Assembly: GCA_001002325.1 (NCBI GenBank)
Contig: LCNZ01000006.1
Location: forward strand, 130 to 64,129
Source of the DNA: Candidatus Amesbacteria bacterium GW2011_GWB1_47_19
GTDB taxonomy: Bacteria > Patescibacteriota > Microgenomatia > CAZETR01 > Amesbacteraceae
Length of the DNA stretch: 64,000 nt
Direction: 5' to 3'
Part shown: piece after piece, positions 9,690 to 53,566 of the stretch
Layout: the number at the start of each line of letters is the position of its first letter
How positions within the stretch are numbered: position 1 is the first letter of the stretch
Notes under the pieces: generated by a model
Seen by the model: the letters and a program-made list of their open reading frames with translations, nothing else
Databases searched by the model: none
What the model was told of the DNA's origin: nothing
Made by a program: the position numbers and the translations under genes

Positions 9690-9690
9690 A

Positions 9691-29009: not shown

Positions 29010-29696
29010 ATGAGAATCGATATTCTGACTTTGTTTCCCGAGCAGTTTGAGGGGGTGTTCAGTTACTCCATTATTAAAAGGGCTCAGGAAAAGGGATTGG
29101 CGGATATAAAACTGCATAATCTGAGAGACTGGGCGACGGATAAATATAAATCCGTTGATGACCGGCCGTACGGGGGAGGAGCGGGGATGATACTGCGAGT
29201 TGATGTAATTGACAAGGCAATAAAAAATATCAAAATTCAAAAACTAAAATTCAAATCAAATTCAAATCCCAAAACTCAAAAAGTAATATTGTTGGATGCG
29301 GGGGGAGATAAGTTTAACCAGAAAAAGGCAGAGGAGCTTTCCGGATGCGAGCATTTGATTATTATTTGCGGGCACTATGAGGGGGTGGATCACCGGGTAC
29401 ATGAGCACATCGCGCAAGAGGTGATTTCCGTCGGTGATTTCGTACTTTCCGGCGGAGAAATCCCGGCAATGATAATTGTAGATAGCGTAGTAAGGCTGAT
29501 ACCCGGAGTGCTGGGGAATCCCGAGTCGCTTTCTGAAGAGTCTTTTTCAGGAGTGACAAAGCAGCAAAGTAGCATAGTGACAGAGTACCCGCAGTATACC
29601 CGGCCGGAGAAATTTAAAGGCTGGAAAGTACCGGAGGTATTATTATCCGGAAACCATAAACAAATCAGAGAGTGGAGGGAGAATCCCCCAGGGTGA
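29010..29696 (+). CDS. trmD: tRNA (guanine37-N1)-methyltransferase
   Basis: '[15 protein letters not shown]', '[13 protein letters not shown]' and '[14 protein letters not shown]...[33 protein letters not shown]' are the TrmD SPOUT motifs. A low-complexity insertion '[20 protein letters not shown]' is present. Confidence 0.9.
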
Positions 29697-30249
29697 AGGT
29701 GCGCAGCCTTTGGTAGTGGCTACCGGCGCGGGAGAGAAAACTTTGGTAAAGAGCCAGGCTATCAACAGTAAATGCAGGCAGGGGAATAAATTCCCGGGTT
29801 CTTATCAGATCCATATATTTTTTAGTGGTAGTGGGATCAGTCCGCTTTAACCGGCCGATGGTCAAATGGGGCAGGAAGCGGCGGGGTTGGGGAAACGAGA
29901 GTTGAGATAGAGACAGAGAAAGAGATTTCTGCATCTGCCTGAGCTGTTTCAGGTCACCGGAAAAACCAATGTAAATAAGCGAATTGTCGTGGCGCTGATA
30001 GAGGGTTTCCAAAAACATCGGGGTAAGGGATAAGCCGGTACGGCTGCGGGCAAAGGCGGCCAGGTTCCGGATAACGGGAGTGAAATCATCATCGGCGACC
30101 CGGCCCAGGAAATTTAAGGTGATATGCAACTTTTCCCGGGGTTCCCAGTCGACGGGCAAATTCAGTGACTGCAGCTGTAACTGAAATTCACCCAGAGAGT
30201 CCAGAATAACCTGGGGAGGGGTGATGGCGATGAAAAGTCGGCGAGTCAA
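29665..30249 (-). CDS. thpR: 2H-phosphoesterase, RNA 2',3'-cyclic phosphodiesterase / 2'-5' RNA ligase-like
   Basis: Two H-x-T/S-x motifs ('HITLNF' and 'HLTIGR') about 80 aa apart, within a ~190-aa protein. Confidence 0.6.
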
Positions 30250-30524
30250 GAATTTATCAACAGCGTGCCGAAGATCAGGACAGCCAGGAGGGCGATTAAA
30301 ATATATTCGGCAATAATTTTAATATGCAAATCCCGGTGGTCATAGTGATGAATTATACCCCAGACTACATACGAAACCCCCATACTGATGATAATGGCTA
30401 ACTGCATGCGGGGCTGGTGGGCATACCAGAACAAACCCCACAAGCCAATAACCTGTACACACAATAAGGTGAAGTAATGCAGGGGGTGACGGGAGAAATC
30501 TTTTTCAAAAATAATTCTATTCAT
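30246..30524 (-). CDS. small 3-TM membrane protein, hypothetical
   Basis: ATGA overlaps at both ends (30521-30524 and 30246-30249) indicate translational coupling with the CAP-domain gene and thpR. Confidence 0.5.
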   Translation of the reverse strand: MNRIIFEKDFSRHPLHYFTLLCVQVIGLWGLFWYAHQPRMQLAIIISMGVSYVVWGIIHHYDHRDLHIKIIAEYILIALLAVLIFGTLLINS

Positions 30525-31363
30525 ATAATTTGGCCACGAATGAGAGTAATGGCAGCCAGGGCAACCACAGCCAGGAAAATAAAGTGGGCGAAACTTTTAC
30601 TGGTCCAGCGGACTAGCCGCCGACGGTTAACTATGACCACATCCAACAGCAGAACTGCTGCAAACAGTACCAGCAGACTGACGGAAAAAATTTTGGTCAA
30701 TGTAAAAGGTGAAGTGACCGGTGCGGATGTGGGCAGAACTTCCTGAGCTTTAACTGTAAAAGCCGAACCCACTGCCGCAGTCGCTGGAGCCTGCCCCAAA
30801 CGCGTACCGAACATCTGAACGACCAGAGTGGTTTCCCTCCCTCCTAAATTTCCGTCGGCCACAGCCACCCCCATATCCCGATAGCGGTTGGAAAGCATAT
30901 TTTCCCGGTGAGACGGTGAGTTCATCCAGGCTTGGACCACCGAGTCCGGATCCGAAAAATCCCGGGCCAGGTTTTCTCCGGCATAGCGGTAGGAGTAACC
31001 GGCGGCGGTTATAAAAGTCCAGGGCTGGGTTCCGGCAGGTGAGACGTGCGACCAATAATCCCGGGCAAACATATCCGCAGCTTTACGGGCGGCGGCGGCG
31101 GATAACTGCGGGTCCAGCTCCAGAGCCGGCAAGCCCTGGGACTGGCGCTGCTGATTGGTGAGTGTAAGTATCTGTACGGGTTGAATAACGGAGGCATAAC
31201 CCAAAATCCGGGGGTAACGGTAGGATATTTTTCCCACGGCCATCTGAAAAACCAGAACCAGTGACAGAACTACCAAAAGTGATGAAGGGTGGAGAATTTT
31301 TGCGCGCTGATTGTTAGTGTGATGCGGCAGAAAAAGATGCGTAATTACGGACATTAGCTCCAT
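30521..31363 (-). CDS. CAP/SCP/PR1-like (YkwD-type) domain protein, membrane-anchored
   Basis: 'YAGENLARDFSDPDSVVQAWMNSPSHRENMLSNRYRDMGVAV' is the CAP domain signature. N- and C-terminal hydrophobic segments are present. Confidence 0.65.
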   Translation of the reverse strand: MELMSVITHLFLPHHTNNQRAKILHPSSLLVVLSLVLVFQMAVGKISYRYPRILGYASVIQPVQILTLTNQQRQSQGLPALELDPQLSAAAARKAADMFARDYWSHVSPAGTQPWTFITAAGYSYRYAGENLARDFSDPDSVVQAWMNSPSHRENMLSNRYRDMGVAVADGNLGGRETTLVVQMFGTRLGQAPATAAVGSAFTVKAQEVLPTSAPVTSPFTLTKIFSVSLLVLFAAVLLLDVVIVNRRRLVRWTSKSFAHFIFLAVVALAAITLIRGQII

Positions 31364-31547: not shown

Positions 31548-32132
31548 ATGAAGTTAATCAAGACTGCTTTAATTTCCGGAGTCTTCGCTGCTTTTGCGGT
31601 ATTACCGGTAATGGCTGATGAGGTGACCATCGCCGACAACGGAGCCAAATCGGATAATACTGTAAAAATCGTTGACGAATCCAGCACCGGCGTATTACAG
31701 GGAAATGCGACCATCGTAGTGACCGTGGCCGAGGTTAAAAGCGACAGCGGTGATAACACTGCCAGCAAAAATACCGGCGGTGACACTACGGTCAAAACCG
31801 GTGACGCGTCCTCTCTTTTGAAAGTAAGTGTGGAAGGCGGATCGAACGAAGCCTCTCTGCCTGAGCCCTGCGGTTGCCCGGATTCCAACGTGGTCAAAAT
31901 CAAAGATAACGGCTACAAATCCGACAACAAAGTCGTAATCAAGGACTCATCGTCAACTTTTGTCGGCCAGGGAAACCTGACTGGAGTACTGACGCTGGCC
32001 AAAGTTGCTTCCGATACCGGAGACAATAAAGCCAATGCCAATACCGGCGGTAATACAAAAATCAAGACCGGTAAAGCCAGTTCCACTTTGAAAGTCAAAG
32101 TGACCGGATCGTCCAATACCATCAATCCGTAG
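31548..32132 (+). CDS. secreted protein with two copies of the ~73-aa TGNG/NTGG/TGDA repeat module (no anchor)
   Basis: Signal peptide 'MKLIKTALISGVFAAFAVLPVMADE', a strong RBS (aaaggaggtg) and two tandem module copies joined by a 'EPCGCPD' Cys pair. Confidence 0.8.
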   Translation: MKLIKTALISGVFAAFAVLPVMADEVTIADNGAKSDNTVKIVDESSTGVLQGNATIVVTVAEVKSDSGDNTASKNTGGDTTVKTGDASSLLKVSVEGGSNEASLPEPCGCPDSNVVKIKDNGYKSDNKVVIKDSSSTFVGQGNLTGVLTLAKVASDTGDNKANANTGGNTKIKTGKASSTLKVKVTGSSNTINP

Positions 32133-32154
32133 CAATACTCGGGTTACGGAAAAT

Positions 32155-32184
32155 AAAAGCCCTGCCCATGGTAGGGCTTTTTTT
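32155..32184. terminator. bidirectional rho-independent terminator
   Basis: The hairpin aaaagccc-tgcccatggta-gggctttt has A/T runs on both sides. It sits between convergent genes that end at 32132 (+) and 32187 (-). Confidence 0.65.
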
Positions 32185-32186
32185 GA

Positions 32187-32819
32187 TCACAAGCGCACGG
32201 GTTTAGCCCTGACAATCAATCGTTTGGAATCCAAAAATCCGGAACAGGTGAAGAGAGTCAAAATTTCGTCGGTGGCCGGGGATATTACTTCCGTCTGGTC
32301 GGGAGACACCAACTTTGTGGTATCCACTGAATACCGGTACCATCGACCCGATGTCAGTAAATATATCCGGTCGCCGGTTTTAATATTTCTCAGGGACACA
32401 AATAACCCTTCCCGAGCGTGGGCGAAAATGACGGTATTTCCGGATTGGCCGGGATTGGCAGAGCCTACACCGTGAGAAGCAGATGTTTCTGACAACTCCC
32501 AATAACCGTTAATGACTTTGGCTTCCACCACCGGCAGGTCGATGTTGATGCCGGGGATTAGAATCCGGACGGGCGGTTGGGGCGGATCGACCGGGGATAA
32601 TAAGCCGGGATCAATGCGGATGGGGCCGGCAACCGCCGGGAGAGAAGGAGCCGGGGAAGGAGCAGGTGATATCCCGGGTGTAGTAACTGAGATAACCGGT
32701 GCCGAATCTACCCGGCGGTATAGTTGGGGGAAGAAAGCCAGAAGAACGCCGGTGACGATCAGACTGATTTTGACAGCTTTTCGGGGAAAACGCTGTAATA
32801 TTTGGCGCAAATTAAGCAT
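32187..32819 (-). CDS. sortase (transpeptidase), membrane-anchored
   Basis: 'VIFAHA' His motif, 'LTLFTCSGF' (TLxTC active-site Cys) and a downstream Arg. The start is the ATG at 32819 (MLNLRQ...) rather than the long upstream extension. It overlaps the upstream gene's 3' end by 61 nt in another frame. Confidence 0.75.
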   Translation of the reverse strand: MLNLRQILQRFPRKAVKISLIVTGVLLAFFPQLYRRVDSAPVISVTTPGISPAPSPAPSLPAVAGPIRIDPGLLSPVDPPQPPVRILIPGINIDLPVVEAKVINGYWELSETSASHGVGSANPGQSGNTVIFAHAREGLFVSLRNIKTGDRIYLLTSGRWYRYSVDTTKLVSPDQTEVISPATDEILTLFTCSGFLDSKRLIVRAKPVRL

Positions 32820-33379
32820 AGCGCTCCAGCCAGATAAAAAGCGTATTCGGAAAATCCTGCGGGTCCAGCGGTAGCTGACAGGCCCAAAACCTGAGTACCC
32901 CCCGTCCCCCCTCCCCCATCTCCGGATGACGAGCCTCCGGATGAAGAAGGTGATGATGAACCGGTGTTGTTTTGGGGCAGGCTTCCCGGGTCCGGAACAG
33001 GTGTGGAAGTAGGGTTGACGGCCGATCCGGGATCGGGAGTGATCTCCGGTGCGGGAGTGGCACAGCAATCGGTTTTGACGAAATTGGTGTTGAAAAAGTT
33101 TTTGATATCCACCTCTGTAGTTGCATCCCCGGTTTGGATCACGGCGTTGCCGGAATTTCCCGAAGCGGAATTACCCCCGGTATTGGCTGATGATTTGATA
33201 TCGTTCACCACATCGATACTGTTTCCCTGCCGGACATTTATTGATGATCCCGACTGAACGACAATACTGTTTTCCGATCCGCCACCATTGCCGGTGATAG
33301 TCAGCTCCTGGGCAAAAACCAGGCGGGATATTCCGGAAAGAGTGAGAAGAAAAACTACAAAAATAATTATCCTTGGCAT
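32759..33379 (-). CDS. secreted repeat-module protein with C-terminal TM and charged tail (sortase-substrate-like)
   Basis: Signal peptide, one TGNG...NTGGN...TGDA...DCC module, a Pro/Ser/Gly linker, then 'LSATAGPAG'-[TM]-'KYYSVFPEKLSKSV'. Confidence 0.65.
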   Translation of the reverse strand: MPRIIIFVVFLLTLSGISRLVFAQELTITGNGGGSENSIVVQSGSSINVRQGNSIDVVNDIKSSANTGGNSASGNSGNAVIQTGDATTEVDIKNFFNTNFVKTDCCATPAPEITPDPGSAVNPTSTPVPDPGSLPQNNTGSSSPSSSGGSSSGDGGGGTGGTQVLGLSATAGPAGFSEYAFYLAGALCLICAKYYSVFPEKLSKSV

Positions 33380-33416
33380 ATGTCCGGCAGGTCCTCGACC
33401 GGCTCGGGCAAGAAGT

Positions 33417-35624
33417 TCAGAGGGGCAAGCGGCGAAGTTTGAGTAGGCCGAGTATACCAGCGGCCGGAATGATTAGCAACAACCAAGCTAAATTGATATG
33501 AATTATTTTTCGACTCAATCCGGAGGGTGCGGGGGTAATGATCACATCCCGCAGATCTCCGGCAGTGAAACTGGCGATCAAGGCGTCGGGTTTGGATTCA
33601 CTGTCGATCGCGAAAACTCCGGGTTTCCTGCCCAGGAGGCGGCGAATACCGGATTTGATTGTGGCTGTTTGGCCGGGGTTGGAAGGAGTTTGTGATGTCA
33701 GGACAGAAATAGCCGGTGCGGTAGTGGGAGCAGATGACTCCTGTAAATCGGCCCCACCGACGGCCGGTTCAGACACGGGATTAGAAATATTTTCGGATTG
33801 AGCAGTGACCGGTAGATCCGGGTTCGGGGTTTTCTTTTGTCCGGATGTAACAAAGTCTCCCAGCCAACTGCCGAAGACGTTGACTACCGATACCACCAGC
33901 CGGCCGCCTCCTGTAATGTTGTTGTTGACGAAATTAACCAGATTGGCAATTATCTGGGCGTCTCCGGTAAGAATTCCGTTGGAACCACCGGTGTTGTAGC
34001 TGGCGGAATTTCCGCCGGTATTGGCGGAAAGCTGTAAATTGTTATTCAGATCGGCAGTATTGGTCTGGGTTGTGGTGTTGGTAGTAGCGGTATCCACATT
34101 GGTGGTGTTGACCGAGCCGGCGCCGTTGCCGCTGTTAACGGCTGTAATTTCACCGTTGGGGCCGACGGCGAATTGGGTACCGGGAGAACCGGCATAATTG
34201 GTGCCGTCGGGTGATCCGAAAATCTTTCCGATCCAGTTTCCGGCTTCATTAACCAGCACCAGCCACCAAGTACTCCCGGACACGTTGGAATTGGCCACGT
34301 TCAGAACGGAGGCGGTGACGGAAGTGTCTCCCGTGGAAATCAGGTTGTCCCCGCCGGTGTTACCGGTGGTCTGGTTGGAACCGGTATCGGCATCCAGGAC
34401 CAGATTGTTATCGATATTAGCCAGGTTGGACTGATAGGTAGAGTCGGTGACGGTTGTATTGACGTTGGCGGTATTGACCGAACCAGCCCCATTATCCGTG
34501 TTGGCGACGGTAACATTCTGACCGCAGCAGGGGCCGAATTGTTCCTCCGGGAAGACGATGTCCCCTATCAGATCACCGTAAATATTAATCACACCGTAAA
34601 CCACATTACCGGTAATATTGTTGTTGGCAAAAGTTAAAGCGCTGGCGGAAACATTGGCATCACCGGTAGTGATCAGGTTATCACCTCCGGTGTTGAAGTT
34701 TGTCTGATTTCCTCCGGAATCCGCAGACAAGATCAGGTTGTTACCTACAGTGGCATCATTATTCTGGAATGTCGTGTTAGTGGTACTGGCTGTCAGATCG
34801 GTAGTATTGGTTGAATCCGCTCCATTCCCTGTATTGGCCAGTGTGACATCATTCCCCCCGCAGCCGGATATACAATTGGCTGCGAAGTCCAGCACATAGT
34901 CTCCCTGATGATCGTCAACAATGTTAAATTCAGATACGCTGACTCCGGCGAGATTGGTGTTCACCGAGGTGATGGCCGTGCCCGAAACATTGGCATTACC
35001 GGTTTGAATAAGCGAATTACCCACATTCATCGAGGCGGAATTGTCGCCGGTATTACTGGTCTGGTTTAAGTCGTTGGATACTGAAACGGAATTATTCTGG
35101 GTGGTGGAATTGGTGTCGGAAATCTGCATCGAGCCGGTGTTGTCCGAGCCGGCGCCATTGCCGGTGTTGGATATACTTATGCCTCCCCCGGTACCGGTGG
35201 GAGTTACAGCCAGGTTGGTGTTGGCTTCGGAAATGACGATGCCCGAATTGTCGGCATCGCCGGTAGCGATGATGGTATCTCCAGTCTGTCCATTTTGTAC
35301 CACGCCATCAACCGGCGTAGGTGTCGGGTTTGAATCGGATGCGATTACAACCGGTGCGGTGGTAGGTGCGGGGTCGGAAACTGCAGAAGTAGGAGAGGGA
35401 TCAGCGGGAGCGGGGGCAATAGTCGGGGAAGCCTGGGTGATAGTCGGCTGGGGAACAGCCGTGGGTGCGGGAGGGGGGGTATCCGCCGGCGGAGGCGGCG
35501 GGGGGGGCGGGGGAGGAGGGGCTTCCTGAGCCCGGATCGGAAGGACCTGAACCAGCAAAATGCCGCAGAGAGCGACGACAGACAGCAGTTGCTGAACAAA
35601 TCTCAATTGCTTTTTTATTAACAT
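33417..35624 (-). CDS. large secreted surface protein with about five TGNG/NTGG/TGDA modules, a poly-Pro N-terminal stalk, and a C-terminal TM plus basic tail
   Basis: 735 aa. Signal peptide, then 'PPPPPPPPPPPPADTPPPAP', then repeated 'NTGNGAGS.NT...Q.N....NTGG.N.I.TGDA.V.A....ANNNITG' units. The C-terminus is 'ITPAPSG..[TM]..KLRRLPL'. Confidence 0.75.
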   Translation of the reverse strand: MLIKKQLRFVQQLLSVVALCGILLVQVLPIRAQEAPPPPPPPPPPPADTPPPAPTAVPQPTITQASPTIAPAPADPSPTSAVSDPAPTTAPVVIASDSNPTPTPVDGVVQNGQTGDTIIATGDADNSGIVISEANTNLAVTPTGTGGGISISNTGNGAGSDNTGSMQISDTNSTTQNNSVSVSNDLNQTSNTGDNSASMNVGNSLIQTGNANVSGTAITSVNTNLAGVSVSEFNIVDDHQGDYVLDFAANCISGCGGNDVTLANTGNGADSTNTTDLTASTTNTTFQNNDATVGNNLILSADSGGNQTNFNTGGDNLITTGDANVSASALTFANNNITGNVVYGVINIYGDLIGDIVFPEEQFGPCCGQNVTVANTDNGAGSVNTANVNTTVTDSTYQSNLANIDNNLVLDADTGSNQTTGNTGGDNLISTGDTSVTASVLNVANSNVSGSTWWLVLVNEAGNWIGKIFGSPDGTNYAGSPGTQFAVGPNGEITAVNSGNGAGSVNTTNVDTATTNTTTQTNTADLNNNLQLSANTGGNSASYNTGGSNGILTGDAQIIANLVNFVNNNITGGGRLVVSVVNVFGSWLGDFVTSGQKKTPNPDLPVTAQSENISNPVSEPAVGGADLQESSAPTTAPAISVLTSQTPSNPGQTATIKSGIRRLLGRKPGVFAIDSESKPDALIASFTAGDLRDVIITPAPSGLSRKIIHINLAWLLLIIPAAGILGLLKLRRLPL

Positions 35625-35729
35625 TTTTTAAAAATTTATAATTTCTAATTACTAATTTCTAAATAATTTTTTTGAGTTTGCGAGGTGGTCTGTTGAAGTG
35701 CTAACAGACTCACCCCACAAACATCAAAA

Positions 35730-36986
35730 TTAGACTAAACCGAGCCAACCCATTAATTGACCCAGATTCAACGTGATGTTGAAATCGAAATCAAAATCGG
35801 ACCAGTTCGGTAATTCAGGCCAGTCAATGCCGGCACCTTCACCGTAAACGTTGACGTTACCGGAATTTTCTACAGCTACGTGATCCCAGGCATCACCTGT
35901 GAGTATTGCCGGATCTCCTTCCGGATCCCCGGTATTCTGATCAACATCGTTTTTGCCGGTATCAGAGTCGCCATCAAGGTAGTTTTTGAGGAGAGCAAAA
36001 TTGCCTGCCCCATCGTAACCTTGGTTAACCCACAAATCATTGCCCAATTTGGCGTAAATATCATTATCGGTTTCGGCTCCGTTCACACCGATCTTGGCGA
36101 GAAGATCGACTACACAACCACAATCAACGTCGGCTGAATTGAAGTTGACCATATTATCCACTTCAATCCAAGTCTTGGCGTTTCCGGTGTGAAGTAAAAC
36201 ATCACCTCCGGTATTCTGGTTGGCGTCGTTGTCGCCGGTATCGGCATCGGCATCAACTTCGTTGAATACTTTTGCTGAATTCTCCTGGTTCAGAGTTATG
36301 TCCTGATCCAGTTTGAGATAGATATCGTTGATGGATTTGTATCCGTTACCAACGATTTCAGCCGAAAGCTCTGAACCTGATTGGCCACCACTTCCAACCT
36401 GGACTTCGTTTGCGTTGGCGATAGTGGAGATTTCAACTTTGGCTTTGGCATTGCCGGTGGCTACCAGCACTTCACCCCCAGTATTCTGGTTGGCGTCGTT
36501 GTCGCCGGTATCGGCATCAGCATCTACATCATTCTTGACAAAAGCTTTGTTGTACTGATCAACATAAATGTCACCATAATCTTTGATCGTGGCGTCATTG
36601 TCTGTTTCAGCACCGTTTTCAGAAATGAGTATATGGGTATCCCCCAAGTCACAACAATCAACGCTGGCAATGTTGGAGTTTAAAAGGTTTGAAACCGCCA
36701 CTTTGGTGGAGGCATCACCTGTTAAAACACCCACGCTACCCCCGGTATTCTGATTTGCATCGTTATTCCCGGTATCGGCGTCGCTTTCAACTTTGTTGAT
36801 GACGATAGCTGTATTTTCCTGGTAAACCGTAGTGTCACCAGTAAACTTGACAGTTGCATCGTTTGTGGAGTTATACCCGTTTCCCGTTATTTCGATTGTG
36901 GTTTCAGCCAGTGCGGGAGTTACCAAGCTTAGAAACATGGTACCCGCAGAAGCTGCAGCCAACAATCTTTTTGAAAATTTTGTCAT
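35730..36986 (-). CDS. secreted protein with four TGNG...DADTG(D/N)NDANQNTGG...TG(D/N)A...DCC modules (no anchor)
   Basis: Signal peptide 'MTKFSKRLLAAASAGTMFLSLVTPALAE' and RBS aaaggaggtgag. The 'DADTGDNDANQNTGG' core recurs three times exactly. Confidence 0.8.
   Translation of the reverse strand: MTKFSKRLLAAASAGTMFLSLVTPALAETTIEITGNGYNSTNDATVKFTGDTTVYQENTAIVINKVESDADTGNNDANQNTGGSVGVLTGDASTKVAVSNLLNSNIASVDCCDLGDTHILISENGAETDNDATIKDYGDIYVDQYNKAFVKNDVDADADTGDNDANQNTGGEVLVATGNAKAKVEISTIANANEVQVGSGGQSGSELSAEIVGNGYKSINDIYLKLDQDITLNQENSAKVFNEVDADADTGDNDANQNTGGDVLLHTGNAKTWIEVDNMVNFNSADVDCGCVVDLLAKIGVNGAETDNDIYAKLGNDLWVNQGYDGAGNFALLKNYLDGDSDTGKNDVDQNTGDPEGDPAILTGDAWDHVAVENSGNVNVYGEGAGIDWPELPNWSDFDFDFNITLNLGQLMGWLGLV
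36210..36520. repeat. intragenic near-identical DNA repeats (39-nt identical cores at 36210-36248 and 36482-36520; diverged third copy at ~36744-36780)
   Basis: 'gtattctggttggcgtcgttgtcgccggtatcggcatc' occurs twice verbatim inside the 35730-36986 gene. It encodes the DADTGDNDANQNTGG core. Confidence 0.8.
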
Positions 36987-37279
36987 TTGTATTTTCTCAC
37001 CTCCTTTCGGTTTATGATTTTCCCCTTTGATAAACTCCGGGGAAGCACTTCGACTCCTCCAAATAAACGGAGGCCTCTTTTTCCTTCCGCCAGTTGGCGG
37101 GAAGACTAAGAAGCCTCCGTTTGCGGTCAGCTTTAATTTTTTAAAGTCGAGAGTCGTAACTTCTAAATCCGGGGCAGTTGATTCAGATTATGAAGTTTTT
37201 AACGCTTTTATATTTTGAATTATCTTATAATTGTTTAGTATATACCGGACCGTTTGTCAAGTATCAACAGACATTTCTG

Positions 37280-37480
37280 TTAGTGTGGCTTTGCCGTTAC
37301 CTGCGACTTACCAAGAGTTTTTTTTATATTGCGGACTGTAATTTGAGTAACCATGTTGTCCTGGACGAATATTTCCAGGCTGCCAAATCCCTGAATTGTT
37401 TTTAAAGAATGGATAATTTCATCAATTAAAGATTGTGACAAAATCTGAGTAGAGTACTTATTCAGGGGTTTGGCGCTCAT
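37280..37480 (-). CDS. YezD/DUF2292-like small protein
   Basis: The 66-aa 'IHSLKTIQGFGSLEIFVQDNMVTQITVRNIKK' resembles the YezD core. An ATGA overlap at 37477-37480 with the upstream gene supports it being translated. Confidence 0.45.
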   Translation of the reverse strand: MSAKPLNKYSTQILSQSLIDEIIHSLKTIQGFGSLEIFVQDNMVTQITVRNIKKTLGKSQVTAKPH

Positions 37481-38181
37481 TGTAAATTCAAATCCACTGT
37501 GGATTTTTCACCTTCAATTTCTCCGATCATAAGTTTTAAATTTTTATCCGAATCATTTATCGGAAACCCCAGTCGCGTGTATTTGGTGGAAGTGGGCTGG
37601 ATGATAACCGGATCGTTATGTATTTCCGGAGCTAATAATTCGGCAGTATTGTCATTGACGGTTAATCGGAAATAATCTTTGGCGTTGATTTCCAAAGCCC
37701 GGGCAAAAGTGCTGGTTATTTTTATCGTTAGTATAAGAAATGACCGGCCTTCGACCGATGTCGCTCTTTGACCTTTGACAATAATTTCATTGCGAAGTTC
37801 TGCCAATTCAAGCAGAAATTTCACCTCGGTTACTGTTTTTCCTTTTGAATCATTCAGTGGAAACAGAAATTCCTGATTCAGTTGCTGAGAAGCTGTAGGA
37901 CCCGCTATGACTACCCTGCCGTCTGCAGAAATGTTTGTCCTGGATATTGTTTTTTTGGCAGTTACCCTGCGTAATACTCCCAAAATCCACCAAATGGTAA
38001 TACCGGCAGTAATAATAAGGATAAGTAAAGGAAGAGTCTTTTTCAATCGCCAGCGTCGTAAATTTAGCCTGTAGGTTAAAGCCTGTCTGATGCGAACCGG
38101 ATAGTCTCTAAAAGATAAAGTCATGATCTGTCTAAAAAAACAAAAACTGCCTTTTGGCAGTTTGGGTCTGAATGCTAACAA
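37477..38181 (-). CDS. single-pass membrane protein with extracytoplasmic beta-rich domain, hypothetical
   Basis: One TM ('LPLLILIITAGITIWWILGVL') then ~170 aa. The start could also be the internal Met at 38124. Confidence 0.5.
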   Translation of the reverse strand: MLAFRPKLPKGSFCFFRQIMTLSFRDYPVRIRQALTYRLNLRRWRLKKTLPLLILIITAGITIWWILGVLRRVTAKKTISRTNISADGRVVIAGPTASQQLNQEFLFPLNDSKGKTVTEVKFLLELAELRNEIIVKGQRATSVEGRSFLILTIKITSTFARALEINAKDYFRLTVNDNTAELLAPEIHNDPVIIQPTSTKYTRLGFPINDSDKNLKLMIGEIEGEKSTVDLNLQ

Positions 38182-38186
38182 GAAGC

Positions 38187-38636
38187 TTATTGGTTGTCAA
38201 TAGTAACCCTGATGCGGGTAGTAACAGTACCTGCAGCTTTGGATATTTCGACGGAGATTTTGATGTTGTCAGCACCGGCACCAACTAATTTGTTCAAAAC
38301 CGAGTCGTTGGTTTTTGTCTGGACATAAGACCTGACATTAAGCCCTATGGCATTAATCTTTTCTTTATACCAGAGGGTAACTTTGTCCGGATCGTCAGGT
38401 GTCTCGTAAGTATCCGGTGATACCAAAACAGAGCCCGGATAGAACCAGATGGTTTCGGGGGGAGGGGCTATCGGCAAGACCGGGGTGGTGCGGGCGACCG
38501 GAACCGGGGTGCGGGAGGGTACAGGAAAAGGAGTCGGTGATAATTCCGGAGTTACCCGGGGGGGGATGCGAGGCGGACGGAAAACGATTCCGAAGACAAA
38601 TATCAGGGAGGCAGCTAATATTGCCAGTGCTTGCAT
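38187..38636 (-). CDS. membrane-anchored Pro-rich-linker protein, hypothetical
   Basis: An N-terminal TM is followed by 'PPRIPPRVTPELSPTPFPVPSRTPVPV' and a ~90-aa C-terminal domain. Confidence 0.5.
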   Translation of the reverse strand: MQALAILAASLIFVFGIVFRPPRIPPRVTPELSPTPFPVPSRTPVPVARTTPVLPIAPPPETIWFYPGSVLVSPDTYETPDDPDKVTLWYKEKINAIGLNVRSYVQTKTNDSVLNKLVGAGADNIKISVEISKAAGTVTTRIRVTIDNQ

Positions 38637-38669
38637 ATCCTCTCCAATTATGACACCAGAGTCAATTGT

Positions 38670-39212
38670 TCAGACGGGAGTAGCCGTGAGAATGAGGCGC
38701 TGGCGATCCAGAAAACCAGTGCAGGTATACAGAACCAATGCAGAATCAGCGGCGGTGACTGGTGAAAGGGCTGAAATTTCTTTGGGGCTGACTTTGGAAA
38801 TGTTGATTATTTTGAAATCGCGGGTGCGGCCGTTGGCAAAAGTTATACTAATAATCTGACCTGTTTTGGCCTGATGTAAGGGTTTTAAGAGACGCGGCCA
38901 GTTGTGGCCGTACATGATGGACACGCCTGATTGACCGGGAAGCGCTGTGGATAAAAGAAAAGTGACCCCGTCGGGAGTGGCGGGAAAACGGGAGCTGAAG
39001 ACATCGGCGGCATATACCGGCAAGTCGATGCCCACTTCCGGCAGTAAAATCCGGGAAGGAAGACTGGTAACACCCAGCTTTGAAGGCGGGTTACGGGTAA
39101 AGCCGGATGCAGGAATCGACAGTGGGGCGAATCTTTCCAGTATCAACAATCCGGCGGCAGCGAAAGCCAATAGCGAGAGGATAAAAAGAAGCAGGGGGAG
39201 TTTAGCGGTCAC
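38670..39212 (-). CDS. sortase (transpeptidase), membrane-anchored
   Basis: N-terminal TM, 'IMYGHNW' His motif, 'LVLYTCTGF' TLxTC motif and a downstream Arg. Confidence 0.8.
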   Translation of the reverse strand: MTAKLPLLLFILSLLAFAAAGLLILERFAPLSIPASGFTRNPPSKLGVTSLPSRILLPEVGIDLPVYAADVFSSRFPATPDGVTFLLSTALPGQSGVSIMYGHNWPRLLKPLHQAKTGQIISITFANGRTRDFKIINISKVSPKEISALSPVTAADSALVLYTCTGFLDRQRLILTATPV

Positions 39213-40053
39213 GGTTGTACTTTTTGGCAGCTAGGGACAGTACCAAGAGGAAAGATCCCAATCCCAGAAGAATGGAGATCATGACCTGATTACCTGTGGG
39301 AGCGAAAGAGGCGGTACCAAGGACGGCTCCGCCGACGGGTTTGTCAGAGGATGAATCAGAAGGCATACAATTATTGACCGCCTTCACGGCAAAGTAATAA
39401 GTCTGACCCGGATCCAGAGCATCAACGGTGTAGGAAGTGACTTGGCCGGTATTCGGGACACCATATATATAGTCTCCGGGTTTAAGACCGTAAAGAATGG
39501 TGTAGTGGGTGGCATTGTCTATCAGACTCCAGGCAAGAATAGCTTTGGTCCCCTGGCGCTCCACCGACAACAAAGTCGGAGGCTGAGGTTTGGCTGAATC
39601 ACATACCGGGGCACCGCCGGTTCCGGGAGGGCTGAAAGTGGGAGTAGGTTCGGTACCGCCTTCATGGCAGTTGTAGCCTGAATTACGAGCGACATAGGGA
39701 GCGGCATCCAGGCCCCAGACAGCACCGGAGGGGACGAATGTCCAACCCGCCGGGACAGATTCAGAATACTTCCACCAGTCTGTCTGAATACCTGAACCGG
39801 AACCTGCGGGACAAAAACACTGAATGAGTCTGGTGTCACTCAAGGTGTATACACTGTCGCTGCCCGAATAAACCCCTGGGTCACCCACAATACCATGAAT
39901 ACCCGAGTCGTAGGCTACTTTGAGGCTGCTGCCGGAAGGGTTGGTACAGGAAGGGAAATCCGGGACTGATTGTGAAGCTACAACCGGAGAGGCAGATAAG
40001 AGAAGTGACACTAGCAAGCTTAAAGCTAAAGTGATGAGCGATATATATTTCAT
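39202..40053 (-). CDS. secreted fibronectin-type-III-like surface protein with C-terminal sorting signal
   Basis: Signal peptide. The FN3-like segment is 'PQPPTLLSVERQGTKAILAW...YTILYGLKPGD...GQTYYFAVKAVN'. The C-terminus is 'SFAPTGN'-[TM 'VMISILLGLGSFLLVLSLAA']-'KKYNRDR', directly upstream of a sortase gene. Confidence 0.65.
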   Translation of the reverse strand: MKYISLITLALSLLVSLLLSASPVVASQSVPDFPSCTNPSGSSLKVAYDSGIHGIVGDPGVYSGSDSVYTLSDTRLIQCFCPAGSGSGIQTDWWKYSESVPAGWTFVPSGAVWGLDAAPYVARNSGYNCHEGGTEPTPTFSPPGTGGAPVCDSAKPQPPTLLSVERQGTKAILAWSLIDNATHYTILYGLKPGDYIYGVPNTGQVTSYTVDALDPGQTYYFAVKAVNNCMPSDSSSDKPVGGAVLGTASFAPTGNQVMISILLGLGSFLLVLSLAAKKYNRDR

Positions 40054-40148: not shown

Positions 40149-41228
40149 TCATTGGACTATGGGTTTTCCGGTAAAAAATGTTTTGACAACATCCGCCGCC
40201 GGACGGTAGGTCAGATTGGAACCAAATTCGTCCCCGATCAGACTGGCGGTGTTACCCATGTGAACCCAATAGTTGACCCCTACCAGATACTGCTTTTCCC
40301 GCAGGCCGGAGTACATCAGGGTAATAACTTCCGCCTGCAGCTGGTCCGATACAGGCTGGAATATCTGATAACCCCATTCTCCCAGGAATACCGGTACCCG
40401 CCAGCGGCGGTAGAACTTGTCCAAATCAGCCAGAGTCTGGACCGTAACCATAAATGGATCATCCATCAGTCCAATGGTATTACTCTGACTGACGAAATGA
40501 TCCACGGTAATTATGCCCATCTTGTCTACCACTTCCTGAGTCAGCTGATTCTCCACCACCCAACCGTTGATTGATATCCAGTTGGTATGAATCTGTTGTT
40601 TGAGACCGATTGATGCAAATGCGCGGTTGGAAACCGTGATCTGAGACAGAAGAAAATGCCGGTATTGATCCCAATTGAGAAATCTTTTTCCCAAACCCAC
40701 TCCGACGTTTTCTGCCTCTACGGCCAAAGTAAAAGCATCTCCGGGTAAAAATAATCCGGGGTTAGCCTTGATAAAGCGCTCTGTCCGGGCGAGGTATTCT
40801 TCGGGATTGAGCGTTGCCGGCTGTCCTTCGTCCCCTTCCCAATCCGCCCAGTGGCTTCTGAACCAGACATGCAGACCACGGGCATGGATGGCATCCGCCC
40901 ACATATACAATTCATCCACCCGGTCATACGGTGTGCCGACAGCAATATAATTTACTCCCAAGTCCGCGACAAGTTTGACCTGTTCGGCTATAGCCCGGGC
41001 ACTGACGTCCGGCCAATGTTTACTGATAACCTGAGTGTCTATACTGCGGATGGACCAGGCAGAATCGGAAGCCGGTAGGGTTGGTTGGCTGTAATCTCCC
41101 TGGGGATAAATAACCCTCTGATGTAAGTAAATCAGTACGGCCTGAGACAAACCGCCAATAAGACAAGCTATCAGCACCGCCAGAGCAAAAAAGTCACGAC
41201 GGAAACTCTTTATTTTTGAATTGATCAT
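40149..41228 (-). CDS. membrane-anchored TIM-barrel glycoside hydrolase (clan GH-A; GH5/GH113-like)
   Basis: N-terminal TM, 'LVADLGVNYIAV' beta-strand motif, and a C-terminal 'VFLGEWGY' candidate nucleophile motif. Confidence 0.45.
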   Translation of the reverse strand: MINSKIKSFRRDFFALAVLIACLIGGLSQAVLIYLHQRVIYPQGDYSQPTLPASDSAWSIRSIDTQVISKHWPDVSARAIAEQVKLVADLGVNYIAVGTPYDRVDELYMWADAIHARGLHVWFRSHWADWEGDEGQPATLNPEEYLARTERFIKANPGLFLPGDAFTLAVEAENVGVGLGKRFLNWDQYRHFLLSQITVSNRAFASIGLKQQIHTNWISINGWVVENQLTQEVVDKMGIITVDHFVSQSNTIGLMDDPFMVTVQTLADLDKFYRRWRVPVFLGEWGYQIFQPVSDQLQAEVITLMYSGLREKQYLVGVNYWVHMGNTASLIGDEFGSNLTYRPAADVVKTFFTGKPIVQ

Positions 41229-41231
41229 AGG

Positions 41232-42878
41232 TCAGGGTAGGTCTTTGGGAGTCAGGGGAGTGGCTGTCCCGGGATCCAAACGGTAAATGTGCGAGAACGA
41301 ATCCTGATAAACCAATCTGTAATTATTAAGGAAATCGGGATTCTGGCGTAAGTGGTTGTCCACTATATCACCCCGGTGAGAGATGACATAAGCTGCGTAA
41401 GCCGAAGGTTCGGCCAAAGCTACATCCCAATAGCGCCTGACACCTTCGGTAATAAAACGCCGCAAAGGAAGCCCTGACCTGAAAAGGAGGGCATCGTTGC
41501 TGGAGGCAGCAACCAGAATCAAACCTTCCGGGGCGTGGTTTTGAATCCAGGCGGCGGCATCATCCAGATATTCTCCGCTGGCTCCCCGGACGCCATCTTC
41601 GATAGTGATAATGTTGTTACCTGTATACATAAGCGCAAACTGAATGACTATGACCGCCAGAGCCAATGCGGCAAATACTTTTTTCCTGCCGGCCAGAAAA
41701 CCGATAGCCAGTGCGGCTGCAGGCAGCATCATTACCCCGTAGCGATCGTTGAACCAGGTATAGGGAGGCAGATCCGGAAGATAAATAACGGAGTGTCCAA
41801 AAAAGAGACTGGTGACGTTGAAAACGAAAGGGGTTAACAGAGCGGCTACCGCCACTTTAACCATGCGTGAATACCGCCCGGAACTGAAGAACATTCCACT
41901 GCCTGCCAGGCTGAGAATGAGTATCCAGGTACCCAGGTTGTAACGGATCGTGAACAGGTAGACAAATAGGGAGTAAATGAAATCGAATTTGGTAGCCAGA
42001 CCGAGCTGGTACATAATGGCATCCTGCTGGGCTTTGGCGGAGAAAGGCCCGGTGACGAAGTAGAAAAAGTCTCCGAAAATTATCCGGTTCCAGAAAAGCC
42101 ATAAGACGATACCGAAACCAGCCAGTGTGCAAAAGAGAAAAAAATTGCCCTGGGCGAAAATCCACCCTTTTTTTTGTTTACCGATATAAGCCACGGCCAG
42201 CCCCATATATGCTAACAGAAACCAGCCGTCGTATCTGGTAATAGTCGTCAAAAAAGTAAAAAATGCCGCTTTGACAAGTGAAGATGTATTCAGGTCTTCG
42301 GTCCATGACAACAGGTAGAACACTGAGGCGATGGTTAAAAATAACAGCAAGGATTCCGTCATGGGGGTGGTTTGCAGGAAGATCAGGTTGGGATTGAGAC
42401 AATACACGGCCAGGCTGATGATAACTGCAGGTGTTGAAAAACGGAGCTTGCCGGAAATCCGAACCAGATAAATACCTCCGAGGACGTAGGAGACCATGGA
42501 AATCAAACTGCCGGCGATACCGCTGTGCCAGAGATAATCATTTGACACCAACGGCAATTCCAGGATGTGGAAAAGAGGCAACCAAACCGATCCGATCTGG
42601 GCAAACCCGGGCTGCAAACTGTCTACCATTCTGCGGGCGATGTTCAGATGAGAACGGGCATCGTTATAAGACAAAGTGAGATTCTGACGGAAATAAAATA
42701 TCCAGGCACCAATACTTATCAGGATCAAAAGGACCAGACACGCGGTCAGAAATCCGGCCGGGTTTCGGACCGGCTCGAGGCGAGTTGAACCAGACAGCGG
42801 CCAGGTTAACGTAATCCGGCGGGAGTTAAGACTGATCATAATCAGATGAGCGGTGGTGCAGATATACCAAGCAAACAC
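41232..42878 (-). CDS. GT-C fold membrane glycosyltransferase-like protein
   Basis: About 540 aa with about 12 TM helices and a C-terminal soluble domain. An alternative start is the ATG at 42839 (MISLNS). Confidence 0.45.
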   Translation of the reverse strand: MFAWYICTTAHLIMISLNSRRITLTWPLSGSTRLEPVRNPAGFLTACLVLLILISIGAWIFYFRQNLTLSYNDARSHLNIARRMVDSLQPGFAQIGSVWLPLFHILELPLVSNDYLWHSGIAGSLISMVSYVLGGIYLVRISGKLRFSTPAVIISLAVYCLNPNLIFLQTTPMTESLLLFLTIASVFYLLSWTEDLNTSSLVKAAFFTFLTTITRYDGWFLLAYMGLAVAYIGKQKKGWIFAQGNFFLFCTLAGFGIVLWLFWNRIIFGDFFYFVTGPFSAKAQQDAIMYQLGLATKFDFIYSLFVYLFTIRYNLGTWILILSLAGSGMFFSSGRYSRMVKVAVAALLTPFVFNVTSLFFGHSVIYLPDLPPYTWFNDRYGVMMLPAAALAIGFLAGRKKVFAALALAVIVIQFALMYTGNNIITIEDGVRGASGEYLDDAAAWIQNHAPEGLILVAASSNDALLFRSGLPLRRFITEGVRRYWDVALAEPSAYAAYVISHRGDIVDNHLRQNPDFLNNYRLVYQDSFSHIYRLDPGTATPLTPKDLP

Positions 42879-44325
42879 CGGAAAAAATTAATATGTATAA
42901 AATGATCGCAAAAATCTGCAAACTGAGGTAGGAAGACAGATAAGTCCGAAAAATAAATGAGCCGGATATCCCGGATTGAAGAAGTGAAAAATTGTGCAGA
43001 AAAGTCAGCCGGGGAATAAGGGAAGCGGATTCGGTTTCAACACTGGGTGGTATCTGGTTGGTAGTCAGAACCCCGGCCAAATTGATGGCCAGACTATAGA
43101 GAAACAGACTAAAAAACAATAAATTAAACCATAACTTCCGGCCATATTTTTCGATAGCTGTGCCTAAAGGCACAGCCAGAAAAGCCATTGCCGGAATCAG
43201 GTAGCGCGGACCAAAGGCCCATCCGCCCCAGGGGTCACCCCACATTCCATAAAGGGCTGTGACGGCAAAAATAACTCCGGCTGCAGTCCATCCGAGGGAC
43301 CGGTCCTTTTTTATCAGAGGAGCCAAACCCAGCAAACCCAATAATAGTACCGGGGTGAAGTAAATCAGCCCCCGGTCGCGGCTGGTTAACAGCACTGAAA
43401 GACTGGCCGGCAATTGCTGGTATTTAAAGAATCCGACAGCCCGGCTGTAATCGGATCCAGAATCCGACCATTCATCCAGAACTGGCTGACCGGTGGTGAT
43501 ATCAAACCGACGAACATTGGTCAAAGTCCCGGCTAACTGAAAAGGATTGTTGTAAGCCAGGCGGTTGTACCATAACAAGGGAATCAATCCCAGTACGAGA
43601 CCGGCAACAATAACCGTTAGTGAAAAGTTTAATGAAACGGAAATTTTGTCCCTAAATGATCGGATGTCCAGGTAGCGATAAGCCAGAAGCAGCAACAGCG
43701 GAATAAAGAAAATCACATTCGGATATTCAACAAAGATACTAAATCCGACCAGAATACCGATTAAAAAAGTCCGTGAGGGTGACCGGGTGAGTTGAAGCAT
43801 ATAAAAACAGGACAACAGCAAAAAAGTGGTCAGATGATGCTGGTAAAAAGTGGCCGAATAGGCCCAAGCCGGAGACGCAAAAGTGAATACCAATCCGGCA
43901 ACCAGACCGGGATACGGATTTCCCAGGAGCCGCCGCAGAATCAGAAATATTAATACCAGGTTAGCCCAGGCAAAAATAGCTGACAAGGAAAAAGTCATGA
44001 TTTGGGCTAACCCCAGGCTTTTGCCAAGTGAATACAGGGGTACCGCTAAAAGTGAAACTCCGGGGGCAAAAAGGGAAACGTATTTTCCCCCGATGTAACC
44101 CAGATCGGGAACCACAAACCGGGCAATAGGGGTGGTGAAGAAAAAAGAATTGTTTTCGACCACGGACATAGTCAGGGCATATCTACCGCGTTCCGGGGAC
44201 AATTCGAAAGGCTGGGACGGACCGCGCAAATTCTCCAATATTTCCTCAGGAGCCGGATTGCCCGGCCGGCCGTGTAAGGTCAGCATCAGGAGCAATCCCG
44301 GCAGGAGAAGGGCAAAGGTTTTCAT
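42826..44325 (-). CDS. GT-C fold membrane glycosyltransferase-like protein (PMT/ArnT-like)
   Basis: 499 aa with an N-terminal signal/TM, an 'ERGRYALTMSVVENNSFFF' loop and about 11 TM helices. Confidence 0.45.
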   Translation of the reverse strand: MKTFALLLPGLLLMLTLHGRPGNPAPEEILENLRGPSQPFELSPERGRYALTMSVVENNSFFFTTPIARFVVPDLGYIGGKYVSLFAPGVSLLAVPLYSLGKSLGLAQIMTFSLSAIFAWANLVLIFLILRRLLGNPYPGLVAGLVFTFASPAWAYSATFYQHHLTTFLLLSCFYMLQLTRSPSRTFLIGILVGFSIFVEYPNVIFFIPLLLLLAYRYLDIRSFRDKISVSLNFSLTVIVAGLVLGLIPLLWYNRLAYNNPFQLAGTLTNVRRFDITTGQPVLDEWSDSGSDYSRAVGFFKYQQLPASLSVLLTSRDRGLIYFTPVLLLGLLGLAPLIKKDRSLGWTAAGVIFAVTALYGMWGDPWGGWAFGPRYLIPAMAFLAVPLGTAIEKYGRKLWFNLLFFSLFLYSLAINLAGVLTTNQIPPSVETESASLIPRLTFLHNFSLLQSGISGSFIFRTYLSSYLSLQIFAIILYILIFSGVCLVYLHHRSSDYDQS

Positions 44326-48116: not shown

Positions 48117-48119
48117 AGA

Positions 48120-52121: not shown

Positions 52122-52176
52122 GTGTATCAGTTAAAAAAACAAACCAGCTAAAGCCAGTCTGATGTCAAAAATTATA

Positions 52177-53472: not shown

Positions 53473-53535
53473 AATTCCAACTATACACCAGCATTATTAC
53501 ATTGGTGTTCCGCAGATACAGACGATGGTTTTTTT

Positions 53536-53564: not shown

Positions 53565-53566
53565 GA

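Follow-up and report, generated by a model that had tools for sequence, protein, structure and literature searches.

The 64,000-nucleotide stretch of DNA analysed here (the window; contig LCNZ01000006.1) comes from Candidatus Amesbacteria GW2011_GWB1_47_19, a member of the Microgenomates within the candidate phyla radiation, and its fn3 protein at 39202-40053 is 100% identical to a protein of Amesbacteria GW2011_GWB1_47_19. The window contains two sortase genes, each of which overlaps the gene of a secreted protein with a hydrophobic C-terminus. An initial annotation had proposed that these two proteins and a third, larger one share a single sorting motif close to [FST]-A-[PT]-[TAS]-G, in the forms FAPTG, SATAG and APSG. 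The finding is real and more orderly than that proposal, with two sortase clades, two signals, and one of the three proposed substrates dropped. The features on which the argument rests are listed below; existing annotations call the substrates hypothetical or just fn3-domain proteins.

39202-40053, minus strand: predicted substrate 1, secreted, 283 residues (open reading frame; Pfam fn3 PF00041, E 2.3e-8; 88 homologues)
39292-39306, minus strand: FAPTG, residues 250-254 of substrate 1 (codons ttc gct ccc aca ggt)
38670-39212, minus strand: sortase 1, clade T1 (YGHNW type), 180 residues (Pfam Sortase PF04203, E 7e-17)
33417-35624, minus strand: large secreted protein, 735 residues, with four or five orphan domains and a plain C-terminal membrane anchor (12 homologues)
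32759-33379, minus strand: predicted substrate 2, secreted, 206 residues, with one orphan domain (open reading frame and homologue alignment)
32864-32881, minus strand: LSATAG, residues 167-172 of substrate 2 (codons ctg tca gct acc gct gga)
32187-32819, minus strand: sortase 2, clade T2 (FAHAR type), 210 residues (Pfam Sortase PF04203, E 1.9e-25)

According to the list of open reading frames (ORFs), all genes of the finding are on the minus strand except a convergent one at 31548-32132 (plus). The GTG start codon of sortase 1 lies inside the last 11 nucleotides of the fn3 gene, while sortase 2 starts either with the ATG at 32819, giving a 61-nucleotide overlap with the gene of substrate 2, or with an alternative TTG at 32810, giving 52 nucleotides. 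Both overlaps had been pointed out in the initial annotation and are present in the DNA; such an arrangement suggests translational coupling.

Substrate 1 is built up, in order, of a signal peptide, a Cys-containing N-terminal beta-sandwich, the fn3 domain, a disordered linker, the sorting signal, a membrane helix and a basic tail, and its C-terminus reads LGTASFAPTGNQVMISILLGLGSFLLVLSLAAKKYNRDR, with KKYNRDR as the basic tail. The AlphaFold2 model (predicted local distance difference test, pLDDT, of 86) has two beta-sandwich domains and a terminal helix at residues 256-282, with disorder at residues 242-251, just before the motif. A fold search with this model returned generic tandem fn3/Ig proteins only. 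The tails of the homologues read G-(G)-Q-V-L-G-[L/F]-A-x-T-G-[N/D/T], directly followed by ca 20 hydrophobic residues and a basic tail, and many of them have an additional QVLGAST copy just upstream of the motif. In an alignment of 59 sequences, A251, T253 and G254 are invariant, and V244, L245 and G246 are conserved to at least 90%. The FAPTG part of the initially proposed element is thus real. For the family as a whole, the motif can be written (G-x-V-L-G)-[L>F]-A-x-T-G-[N/D], or LAxTG in short, and since the homologue tails carry [L/F]AxTG, the FAPTG of the window is a minority form of it.

Substrate 2 ends with LSATAGPAGFSEYAFYLAGALCLICAKYYSVFPEKLSKSV, and consists of a signal peptide, one orphan domain, a low-complexity Pro/Ser/Gly linker, the sorting signal, a short polar spacer, a hydrophobic segment and a Lys-containing tail. 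The tails of its 20 homologues read Q-V-L-G-L-S-A-T-[S/A]-G, with occasional occurrences of LPATGS, LPPTSG and LAATSG. Here, G166, L167 and T170 are invariant among 16 aligned sequences, and the consensus is Q-V-L-G-L-S-x-T-[S/A]-G. The conserved element is LSATA(G), which means that SATAG, as initially delimited, is one residue out of register. When aligned on the invariant Thr, L-S-x-T-[SA] falls in register with L-P-x-T-G, and LSYTG or LSFTG is found in a few of the T2 substrates. The two substrates of the window each combine a signal peptide with a motif, a hydrophobic segment and a positive tail, i.e., all parts of a tripartite signal. Their C-terminal tails had been quoted correctly, as seen from the ORF list, and LPXTG is indeed absent from all three proteins, as the initial annotation stated.

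Both enzymes belong to the sortase superfamily, with PF04203 scores of 61.7 bits for sortase 1 and 89.5 bits for sortase 2, compared to a cutoff of 26.6. With TIGR01076, sortase 2 scores 60.2 bits, above the cutoff of 39.35, and sortase 1 only 30.4. The two are 37% identical to each other, have compact catalytic domains of ca 125 residues each, and end a few residues past the catalytic Arg. Each has an N-terminal membrane anchor, in sortase 2 together with a long Pro-rich linker. His103, Cys164 and Arg172 of sortase 1 are invariant among 35 aligned T1 sequences, and His134, Cys192 and Arg200 of sortase 2 among 31 T2 sequences, with the Cys located in the motif [LI][YF]TC[ST]GF[LF]D.

We now turn to related loci, denoted below by L and a number. 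A scan of GTDB with a sortase alignment, one genome per species, gave 216 relatives, of which 80, nearly all Microgenomates, were kept, and a metagenome scan with a sortase-2 alignment gave 80 loci. The sortases were sorted into T1 and T2 by profile hidden Markov models (HMMs), and the non-redundant tails of the upstream genes were tabulated. The order fn3 gene, then sortase gene is conserved in Amesbacteria, Woesebacteria and others, with the genes abutting or overlapping, often by 8 nucleotides. In the T1 genomes (80 species representatives), the gene directly upstream ends in nearly all cases with (VLG)LAxTG[NDST], a membrane segment and a basic tail. The counts around the Thr in 76 sequences are L67/F6/I2/M1 at position -3, then A, x, T, G and N56/D7, and the membrane segment starts immediately after the motif. 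At the T2 metagenome loci, the upstream genes end with VLG-L[S/A]xT[S/A]G. The counts, from 27 sequences, are V24, L23, G26, L27, S22/A5, x, T24/A3, S19/A7/D1 and G24/S3, then mostly Glu, and five to eight polar residues lie between the motif and the hydrophobic segment.

Denoting L, F, I or M by h, hAxTG was found upstream of T1 sortases (YGHNW around the catalytic His) in 78 of 78 cases and the L[S/A]xT[S/A]G type in none, while upstream of T2 sortases (FAHAR) the L[S/A]xT[S/A]G type was found in 31 of 31 and hAxTG in none. The pairing of clade with motif held thus in all 109 related loci, with zero crossovers. The T1 and T2 profile scores differ by at least 25 bits for every sortase, and none is ambiguous. 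At L124 and L135 the fn3 module is homologous to that of the window (E 5e-11 and 1e-14), yet a T2 sortase adjoins, and the tails read LSTTSG or LSTTSS. Likewise, the linker GDGRSDG..SCPSCTQAP stands before LASTGN beside a T1 sortase (L040), and before LS[ST]TS[GS] beside T2 sortases (L112, L115, L123). In the repeat family of substrate 2, a member with LSDTSS adjoins a T2 sortase (L172; 242 bits), while a member with LPATG adjoins a sortase outside both clades (L171; 44 and 54 bits). Judged from these sequences, the motif follows the sortase clade and not the neighbouring modules.

The LPATG protein at L171 (678-1817) is a three-domain member of the repeat family, and its neighbour at 1937-2548 is a sortase of 203 residues (LFAHSSD ... 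LQTCTP) that falls outside both clades and scores below every NCBIfam class cutoff. It is possible that this represents a third sortase-motif pairing in related bacteria.

The search for a C-terminal motif enriched in relatives, as called for initially, gives a positive answer, but for two motifs instead of one. In ca 1.6 Mb of sortase loci, the per-residue frequency in the last 45 residues of the ORFs compared to the rest is 5.5 times higher for hAxTG and 22 times higher for LSxT[SA]G. LPxTG has a single occurrence in these ORF tails.

What is described above on gene order and domain content, on catalytic residues and conserved motifs, and on how the motif covaries with the clade is direct observation. 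The interpretation that we consider likely is that two sortase-substrate modules are encoded in the window, each a dedicated pair that uses a variant of its own of the tripartite LPXTG-type cell-wall sorting signal. The adjacency of the genes and the tails of the homologues support what the initial annotation had suggested in this respect, namely substrate-sortase gene pairs with lineage-conserved non-LPXTG signals. In module 1, the signal peptide would export the fn3 protein, and the C-terminal helix with the basic tail would keep it in the membrane. Sortase 1 would then recognise (V-L-G)-[L/F]-A-x-T-G-N, here FAPTGN, cut after Thr253, form a thioester on Cys164, and transfer the protein to an amine of the peptidoglycan precursor. 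In module 2, sortase 2 would act alike on Q-V-L-G-L-S-x-T-[S/A]-G, here LSATAG, with the cut after Thr170. The wall-anchored substrate 2 would probably serve as the base of a structure made of its paralogues, i.e., the secreted proteins of 418 and 194 residues and the membrane-anchored one of 735 residues. Since the motifs are the specificity partners of the two clades, the two enzymes probably sort without cross-talk. Sorting-signal peptides for comparing the two sortases are GGAVLGTASFAPTGNQV, GGQVLGLATTGNS, GTQVLGLSATAGPAG and LPETG.

The third protein proposed as a substrate, the one of 735 residues, ends with ITPAPSGLSRKIIHINLAWLLLIIPAAGILGLLKLRRLPL. In the tail as initially quoted, the stretch LSRKIIH, with two basic residues, was omitted between APSG and the hydrophobic segment. 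None of the 12 homologues has hAxTG, LSxT[SA]G, LPxTG or [FST]-A-[PT]-[TAS]-G, and APSG, initially read as a signal, is not conserved among them; what they have in common is [K/R]-x(2-4)-INLAW where the membrane segment begins. With no conserved motif in these homologues and an ordinary, basic-preceded membrane anchor, the large protein was ruled out, and it is predicted not to be a sortase substrate. That the hydrophobic segments could be ordinary stop-transfer anchors had been raised as an objection at the outset; this holds for the large protein, while the fn3 and 206-residue families keep an invariant motif.

Another candidate considered was the protein at 52582-53472 (minus), which ends with EPVTGANDSSSNLGG, containing the look-alike EPVTG, followed by a membrane segment and RK. 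As a fourth signal it was rejected as a chance occurrence, since xPxTG, hAxTG, LSxT[SA]G and LPxTG are found in 0 of 120 homologue tails. A separate observation concerns the tripeptide [VI]LG, mostly with E, D, A, S or T after it, which recurs some 25-30 residues ahead of C-terminal membrane anchors, including those of families devoid of a sortase motif. It is present in the last 70 residues of 89 of the 120 homologues of the 52582-53472 family (12.6 per 1000 residues versus 0.36 in the body) and in 6 of 11 members of the large-protein family, and it recurs in related loci, e.g., L020 6625-9471 and L043 4973-7327. In the sortase substrates, VLG is fused directly to the motif (VLG-LAxTG, VLG-LSxTSG). 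A census of the loci away from the sortase genes gave only two plausible extra signals, LPATG (L095 16-675) and VPQTG (L137 9037-9381).

As to the class of the enzymes, both stay below the cutoffs of all NCBIfam sortase classes, with best scores of 34 and 54 bits versus 140-166. The likeness to class E put forward in the initial annotation stands for the motif, the one of the fn3 family being LAxTG, but not for the enzymes. The class E sortases of Actinobacteria are characterised by LAXTG (PMC5148588), and of the two clades only T1 has this motif, as judged by gene adjacency (hAxTG in the 78 upstream tails). With the class E model (NCBIfam NF033747, cutoff 160), sortase 1 has no match and sortase 2 scores 51.8 bits. 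Among solved structures, class A and class C are nearest to the T1 profile, which matches no class E structure (SrtE1 5cuw, 5go5) at E <= 1e-3; for the T2 profile, class A is best and SrtE1 (E 7e-5) the last but one of 58 matches. Class E enzymes have a long beta6/beta7 loop, ca 21 residues longer than that of class A (PMC5148588). Of the T2 profile, 90 positions align to 103 SrtE1 residues, compared to 71 positions to 72 residues of class A, and as an indirect test these alignment lengths fit with the class E insertion being absent. His and Cys are 61 residues apart in sortase 1, and 58 residues apart in sortase 2. In class E, the alanine at P3 is read by a conserved Tyr of the beta3/beta4 loop (PMC5148588); before this loop, the T1 consensus is GVSYL and sortase 1 of the window has GVTFL, as given by a sequence alignment. 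On the basis of the NCBIfam scores and the structure-profile searches, class E membership of the two sortases was ruled out.

For class C (NF033745, cutoff 160), the scores are 33.8 bits for sortase 1 and 54.2 bits for sortase 2, and inspection of the two sequences revealed neither the DP[FWY] lid motif nor a C-terminal membrane helix. For class D (NF033746 and NF058671, cutoffs 165 and 140), sortase 2 scores 50.9 and 53.5 bits, and with respect to the class D pattern LPxTA(ST), the T2 substrates have the Ser or Ala after the Thr, but the Pro is missing.

Several other explanations of these observations were considered. One is the original proposal, that a single lineage-specific pentapeptide of the form [FST]-A-[PT]-[TAS]-G is present in all three proteins and read by the local sortases. 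FAPTG, SATAG and APSG do all stand upstream of hydrophobic C-termini in the window, and the composite pattern is 3.7 times enriched in the ORF tails of the related loci, although the source of this enrichment is the FAPTG-type members of LAxTG. What the proposal cannot accommodate is that the conserved columns differ (A, T and G in the fn3 family; G, L and T, in a shifted register, in the repeat family), that the motif types never cross between the sortase clades, that the APSG site is unconserved in the 12 homologues of the large protein, and that Arg and Lys intervene between this site and the membrane segment. FAPTG apart, the shared element dissolves into two clade-tied motifs, and we regard the single pentapeptide as hardly credible. 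The opposite possibility is that all the C-terminal segments are plain stop-transfer anchors, that VLG-L-A/S-x-T-G is a linker or structural element, and that the sortases act elsewhere. The [VI]LG before the anchors of motif-less families, in the numbers given above, speaks for this, as does the silence of the NCBIfam LPXTG-anchor model, and because [VI]LG recurs in families that have no sortase motif, the conserved block is in part not peculiar to sortase substrates. Its x-T-G or x-T-[SA]-G portion, however, is invariant only in genes that abut a sortase gene and is absent from the families with VLG alone. In addition, the type of motif switches with the sortase clade despite shared neighbouring modules, homologues in the repeat family have a canonical LPxTG at the same place, and the overlapping genes point to coupled translation. 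We find this possibility distinctly improbable.

A further option is that the two enzymes are pilus or fibre polymerases of the class C kind, which would join substrate subunits from Thr to a Lys side chain into fibres of fn3 or repeat domains. Each sortase has a neighbouring substrate of its own, the way pilus sortases do, class C ranks first or close to the top among the NCBIfam and PDB matches of both enzymes, several paralogous secreted proteins are present in the sortase-2 cassette, and surface appendages are known in bacteria of the candidate phyla radiation (PMC6744442). Nevertheless, the class C scores are far under the cutoff, the lid motif and the C-terminal membrane helix are absent from both sortases, neither substrate has a YPKN-type pilin motif on inspection, and the sorting signal is confined to one protein per module, with no separate housekeeping sortase visible within the window. 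Polymerisation is in our view unlikely.

It is important to point out that a number of considerations weigh against the two-module interpretation as well. Canonical LPXTG is in neither substrate, NCBIfam, including the LPXTG-anchor model, gives no match at E <= 0.01 for them, and substrate 2 has a hydrophobic segment of only about 13-17 residues. The Fisher test of the clade-motif pairing gives p = 6e-28, a value that ignores shared ancestry and overstates independence. Since substrate and sortase are co-inherited as an operon, a part of the perfect covariation could be due to shared descent instead of specificity. Furthermore, the T1 and T2 HMMs were built from subsets of the same sequences that they classified, the motif classes were scored by regular expressions picked after inspecting the data, and the census for extra substrates covered ca 12 kb around each sortase, which is too local to judge distant substrates. 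The evidence is comparative genomics throughout, and we infer from it where the proteins are cleaved, which acceptor they are joined to, that the two enzymes are orthogonal, and what the cassette does. For the cassette, there is also the matter of a repeat domain that lacks a confident fold, as discussed below.

The other genes around the two modules are as follows:

38187-38636, minus strand: membrane-anchored protein, 149 residues, no assigned function (homologues in L007-L009, L095, L098, L099, L104, L105, L144)
37477-38181, minus strand: protein of 234 residues with an N-terminal membrane helix, no assigned function (position and C-terminal domain kept in cassettes)
37280-37480, minus strand: DUF2292 protein, 66 residues, conserved cassette member (PF10055, E 7.8e-6)
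35730-36986, minus strand: secreted protein, 418 residues, with four orphan domains of ca 83 residues and no anchor (acidic/aromatic ending DFDFDFNITLNLGQLMGWLGLV)
31548-32132, plus strand: secreted protein, 194 residues, with two orphan domains and no anchor (convergent with sortase 2; opposite-strand position conserved)
30521-31363, minus strand: CAP/YkwD-like protein with C-terminal membrane helices (PF00188, E 5e-22)
30246-30524, minus strand: membrane protein, 92 residues, neighbour of the CAP/YkwD-like gene
29665-30249, minus strand: LigT-like 2'-5' RNA ligase, neighbour of the CAP/YkwD-like gene

In the relatives L001 and L003, the fn3, sortase, CAP, 92-residue protein and LigT genes follow each other in direct succession, and the sortase-2 cassette is absent. 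Because the CAP gene directly follows sortase 1 in these relatives, the region 31548-38636 reads as an inserted cassette. The order of the cassette is kept in more than 15 loci: the genes for the proteins of 149 and 234 residues, DUF2292, the proteins of ca 418 and ca 735 residues, the substrate of ca 200 residues, sortase 2, and the reversed gene for ca 194 residues. The gene at 38187-38636 is the first one of the cassette in several loci.

Four of the cassette proteins share the orphan domain of ca 83 residues, with four copies in the 418-residue protein, four to five in the 735-residue one, one in substrate 2 and two in the 194-residue protein. Its pattern is GNG..S.N...Q.N...N...A.TGGN.A.GN.G..I.TGDA...V.I.N..N.N...CC. 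Each of the four repeat proteins ends differently, the 418-residue one in an acidic/aromatic segment, the 735-residue one in a plain membrane anchor, substrate 2 in a sortase signal and the 194-residue one without any such element. The ending of the 418-residue protein is kept in many homologues, and many multi-copy members of the domain family at large end in an acidic/aromatic segment such as DFDFxFxLSxxxLLxxLG. In a library of representatives at 50% identity, the profile of the 206-residue family matched 3232 clusters, 752 of them at E <= 1e-30; among the best 142 of the 3232 matches, 30 end with (I/V)LPxTG and ca 27 with the LS[A/D]TS[G/S] type. No Pfam or NCBIfam model describes the domain, and relaxed thresholds on the cassette proteins gave DUF2292 only. 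Curlin-like repeats were considered and rejected, since hhalign gave a probability of 0.6% against E. coli CsgA and there is no Pfam Curlin_rpt match at E <= 10. AlphaFold2 gave a pLDDT of 51 for the repeat domain, i.e., no confident fold, and the suggestion that the paralogues build a surface structure on a wall-anchored one-domain base is for this reason a guess from the gene content.

Downstream of the sortase gene in most related loci, for both clades, the genes for a CAP/YkwD-like protein, a membrane protein of 92 residues and a LigT-like 2'-5' RNA ligase are found, a recurrence that suggests a conserved envelope gene neighbourhood. On the other side, the surrounding 40-56 kb of the window contains envelope glycosyltransferases, VanZ, FtsX and a PcsB-like M23 hydrolase. 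This gene context fits a wall-bearing cell, and a cell wall is likely present, because FtsX and the PcsB-like M23 hydrolase are encoded in the window. These genes belong to a long single-strand run of envelope genes (40149-56233, minus), which includes a GT2+GT4 fusion of 1333 residues (48120-52121), a GT2+GT4 protein of 668 residues, a PMT_2-like membrane protein, a PIG-L deacetylase and a GNAT acetyltransferase, as well as two large membrane proteins, at 41232-42878 and 40149-41228, that match no family.

An observation of a different kind was made at L019 (contig CAZDOJ010000001.1). Here, ca 2.3 kb downstream of the T1 sortase, a protein of 152 residues (8352-8810) ends with NVPEFGLLPGAIAALGSAGAFLAIRRRKI, resembling PEF/PEP-CTERM, and is directly followed by an exosortase/archaeosortase family protein (8817-9755; TIGR04178 61 bits, cutoff 23). 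Some relatives may thus run sortase and exosortase systems together. Like many other Microgenomates-like contigs from the genome scan, this one is titled 'uncultured Gammaproteobacteria', and these labels look wrong.

The two-module interpretation can be taken one step further, to a picture that is possible and that we would put at somewhat below an even chance. In this picture, the Microgenomates have two unnamed, orthogonal sortase classes with extended specificity, one for G-x-V-L-G-L-A-x-T-G-N and the other for Q-V-L-G-L-S-x-T-[S/A]-G-E, the second motif being an undescribed one that lacks both the Pro at P3 and the Gly at P1'. VLG would act as a determinant of recognition specific to the lineage, left as a relic in unsorted anchor proteins, whose retention of it would then be explained, and sortase 2 would anchor the base of a new fibre or coat made from the orphan domain, with its more than 3000 clusters.

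The sortase family has been reported as almost universal among Microgenomates (PMC6744442). In the literature searched, sortases of the candidate phyla radiation otherwise have passing mentions only, and no description of their sorting motifs, recognition or anchored proteins was found. With the two signals known, one could predict from sequence which surface proteins are wall-anchored in these uncultivated and probably episymbiotic bacteria, and it is among them that factors for attachment to the host are expected. As compact enzymes, possibly orthogonal both to each other and to LPXTG enzymes, the two sortases would be candidates for dual-label sortase ligation. The sortase-2 cassette, finally, suggests a so far unstudied surface structure built of members of a large family of orphan domains.

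It remains to compare the two modules with known systems. SrtB of Staphylococcus aureus and IsdC, with the signal NPQTN, constitute a dedicated sortase-substrate pair. The likeness is that a sortase gene lies beside that of its sole substrate, which has an unusual motif unlike that of the genome's other sortase. The match to class B is however negligible (TIGR03064, 15 bits versus 154), the motif is other than NPQTN, and there is no link to iron uptake.

With class D, whose signal is LPXTA(ST) (Bacillus anthracis SrtC, LPNTA), and with the tolerance of S. pyogenes SrtA for LPXTA/LPXTS (PMC5148588, PMC9520033), T2 shares the Ser or Ala after the scissile Thr, and class D models are among the top NCBIfam matches of sortase 2. 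Unlike class D, T2 has Ser or Ala in place of the Pro, a nearly invariant Gly one position further on and then an acidic residue, and a virtually invariant Q-V-L-G before the motif, and the scores of 51-54 bits compare with cutoffs of 140-165. The predicted T2 motif combines features known separately, namely a residue other than Pro at P3, as in LAXTG, and Ala or Ser at P1', as in the LPXTA of class D and in the SrtA tolerance. In the literature searched, no natural sortase motif of the form LSxT[SA]G is described.

The closest parallel to T1 is class E, represented by SrtE1 and SrtE2 of Streptomyces coelicolor with the long chaplins ChpA-C, and by SrtF of Corynebacterium (PMC5148588). The predicted T1 motif is the same pentapeptide, with Ala for Pro at P3, the signal has the same three parts, and the sortase has an N-terminal membrane anchor in both cases. 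Module 2 has a chaplin-like trait too, in that a short anchored member of a family stands among unanchored paralogues. Unlike class E, T1 and T2 occur in the candidate phyla radiation, each is dedicated to one adjacent substrate instead of having a housekeeping role, and in T1 the flanks of the motif are also conserved, with VLG upstream and Asn or Asp downstream. T1 is thus like class E in its predicted motif, yet not a member of it. Because LAxTG recognition would exist outside class E, it would either have arisen more than once or predate that class.

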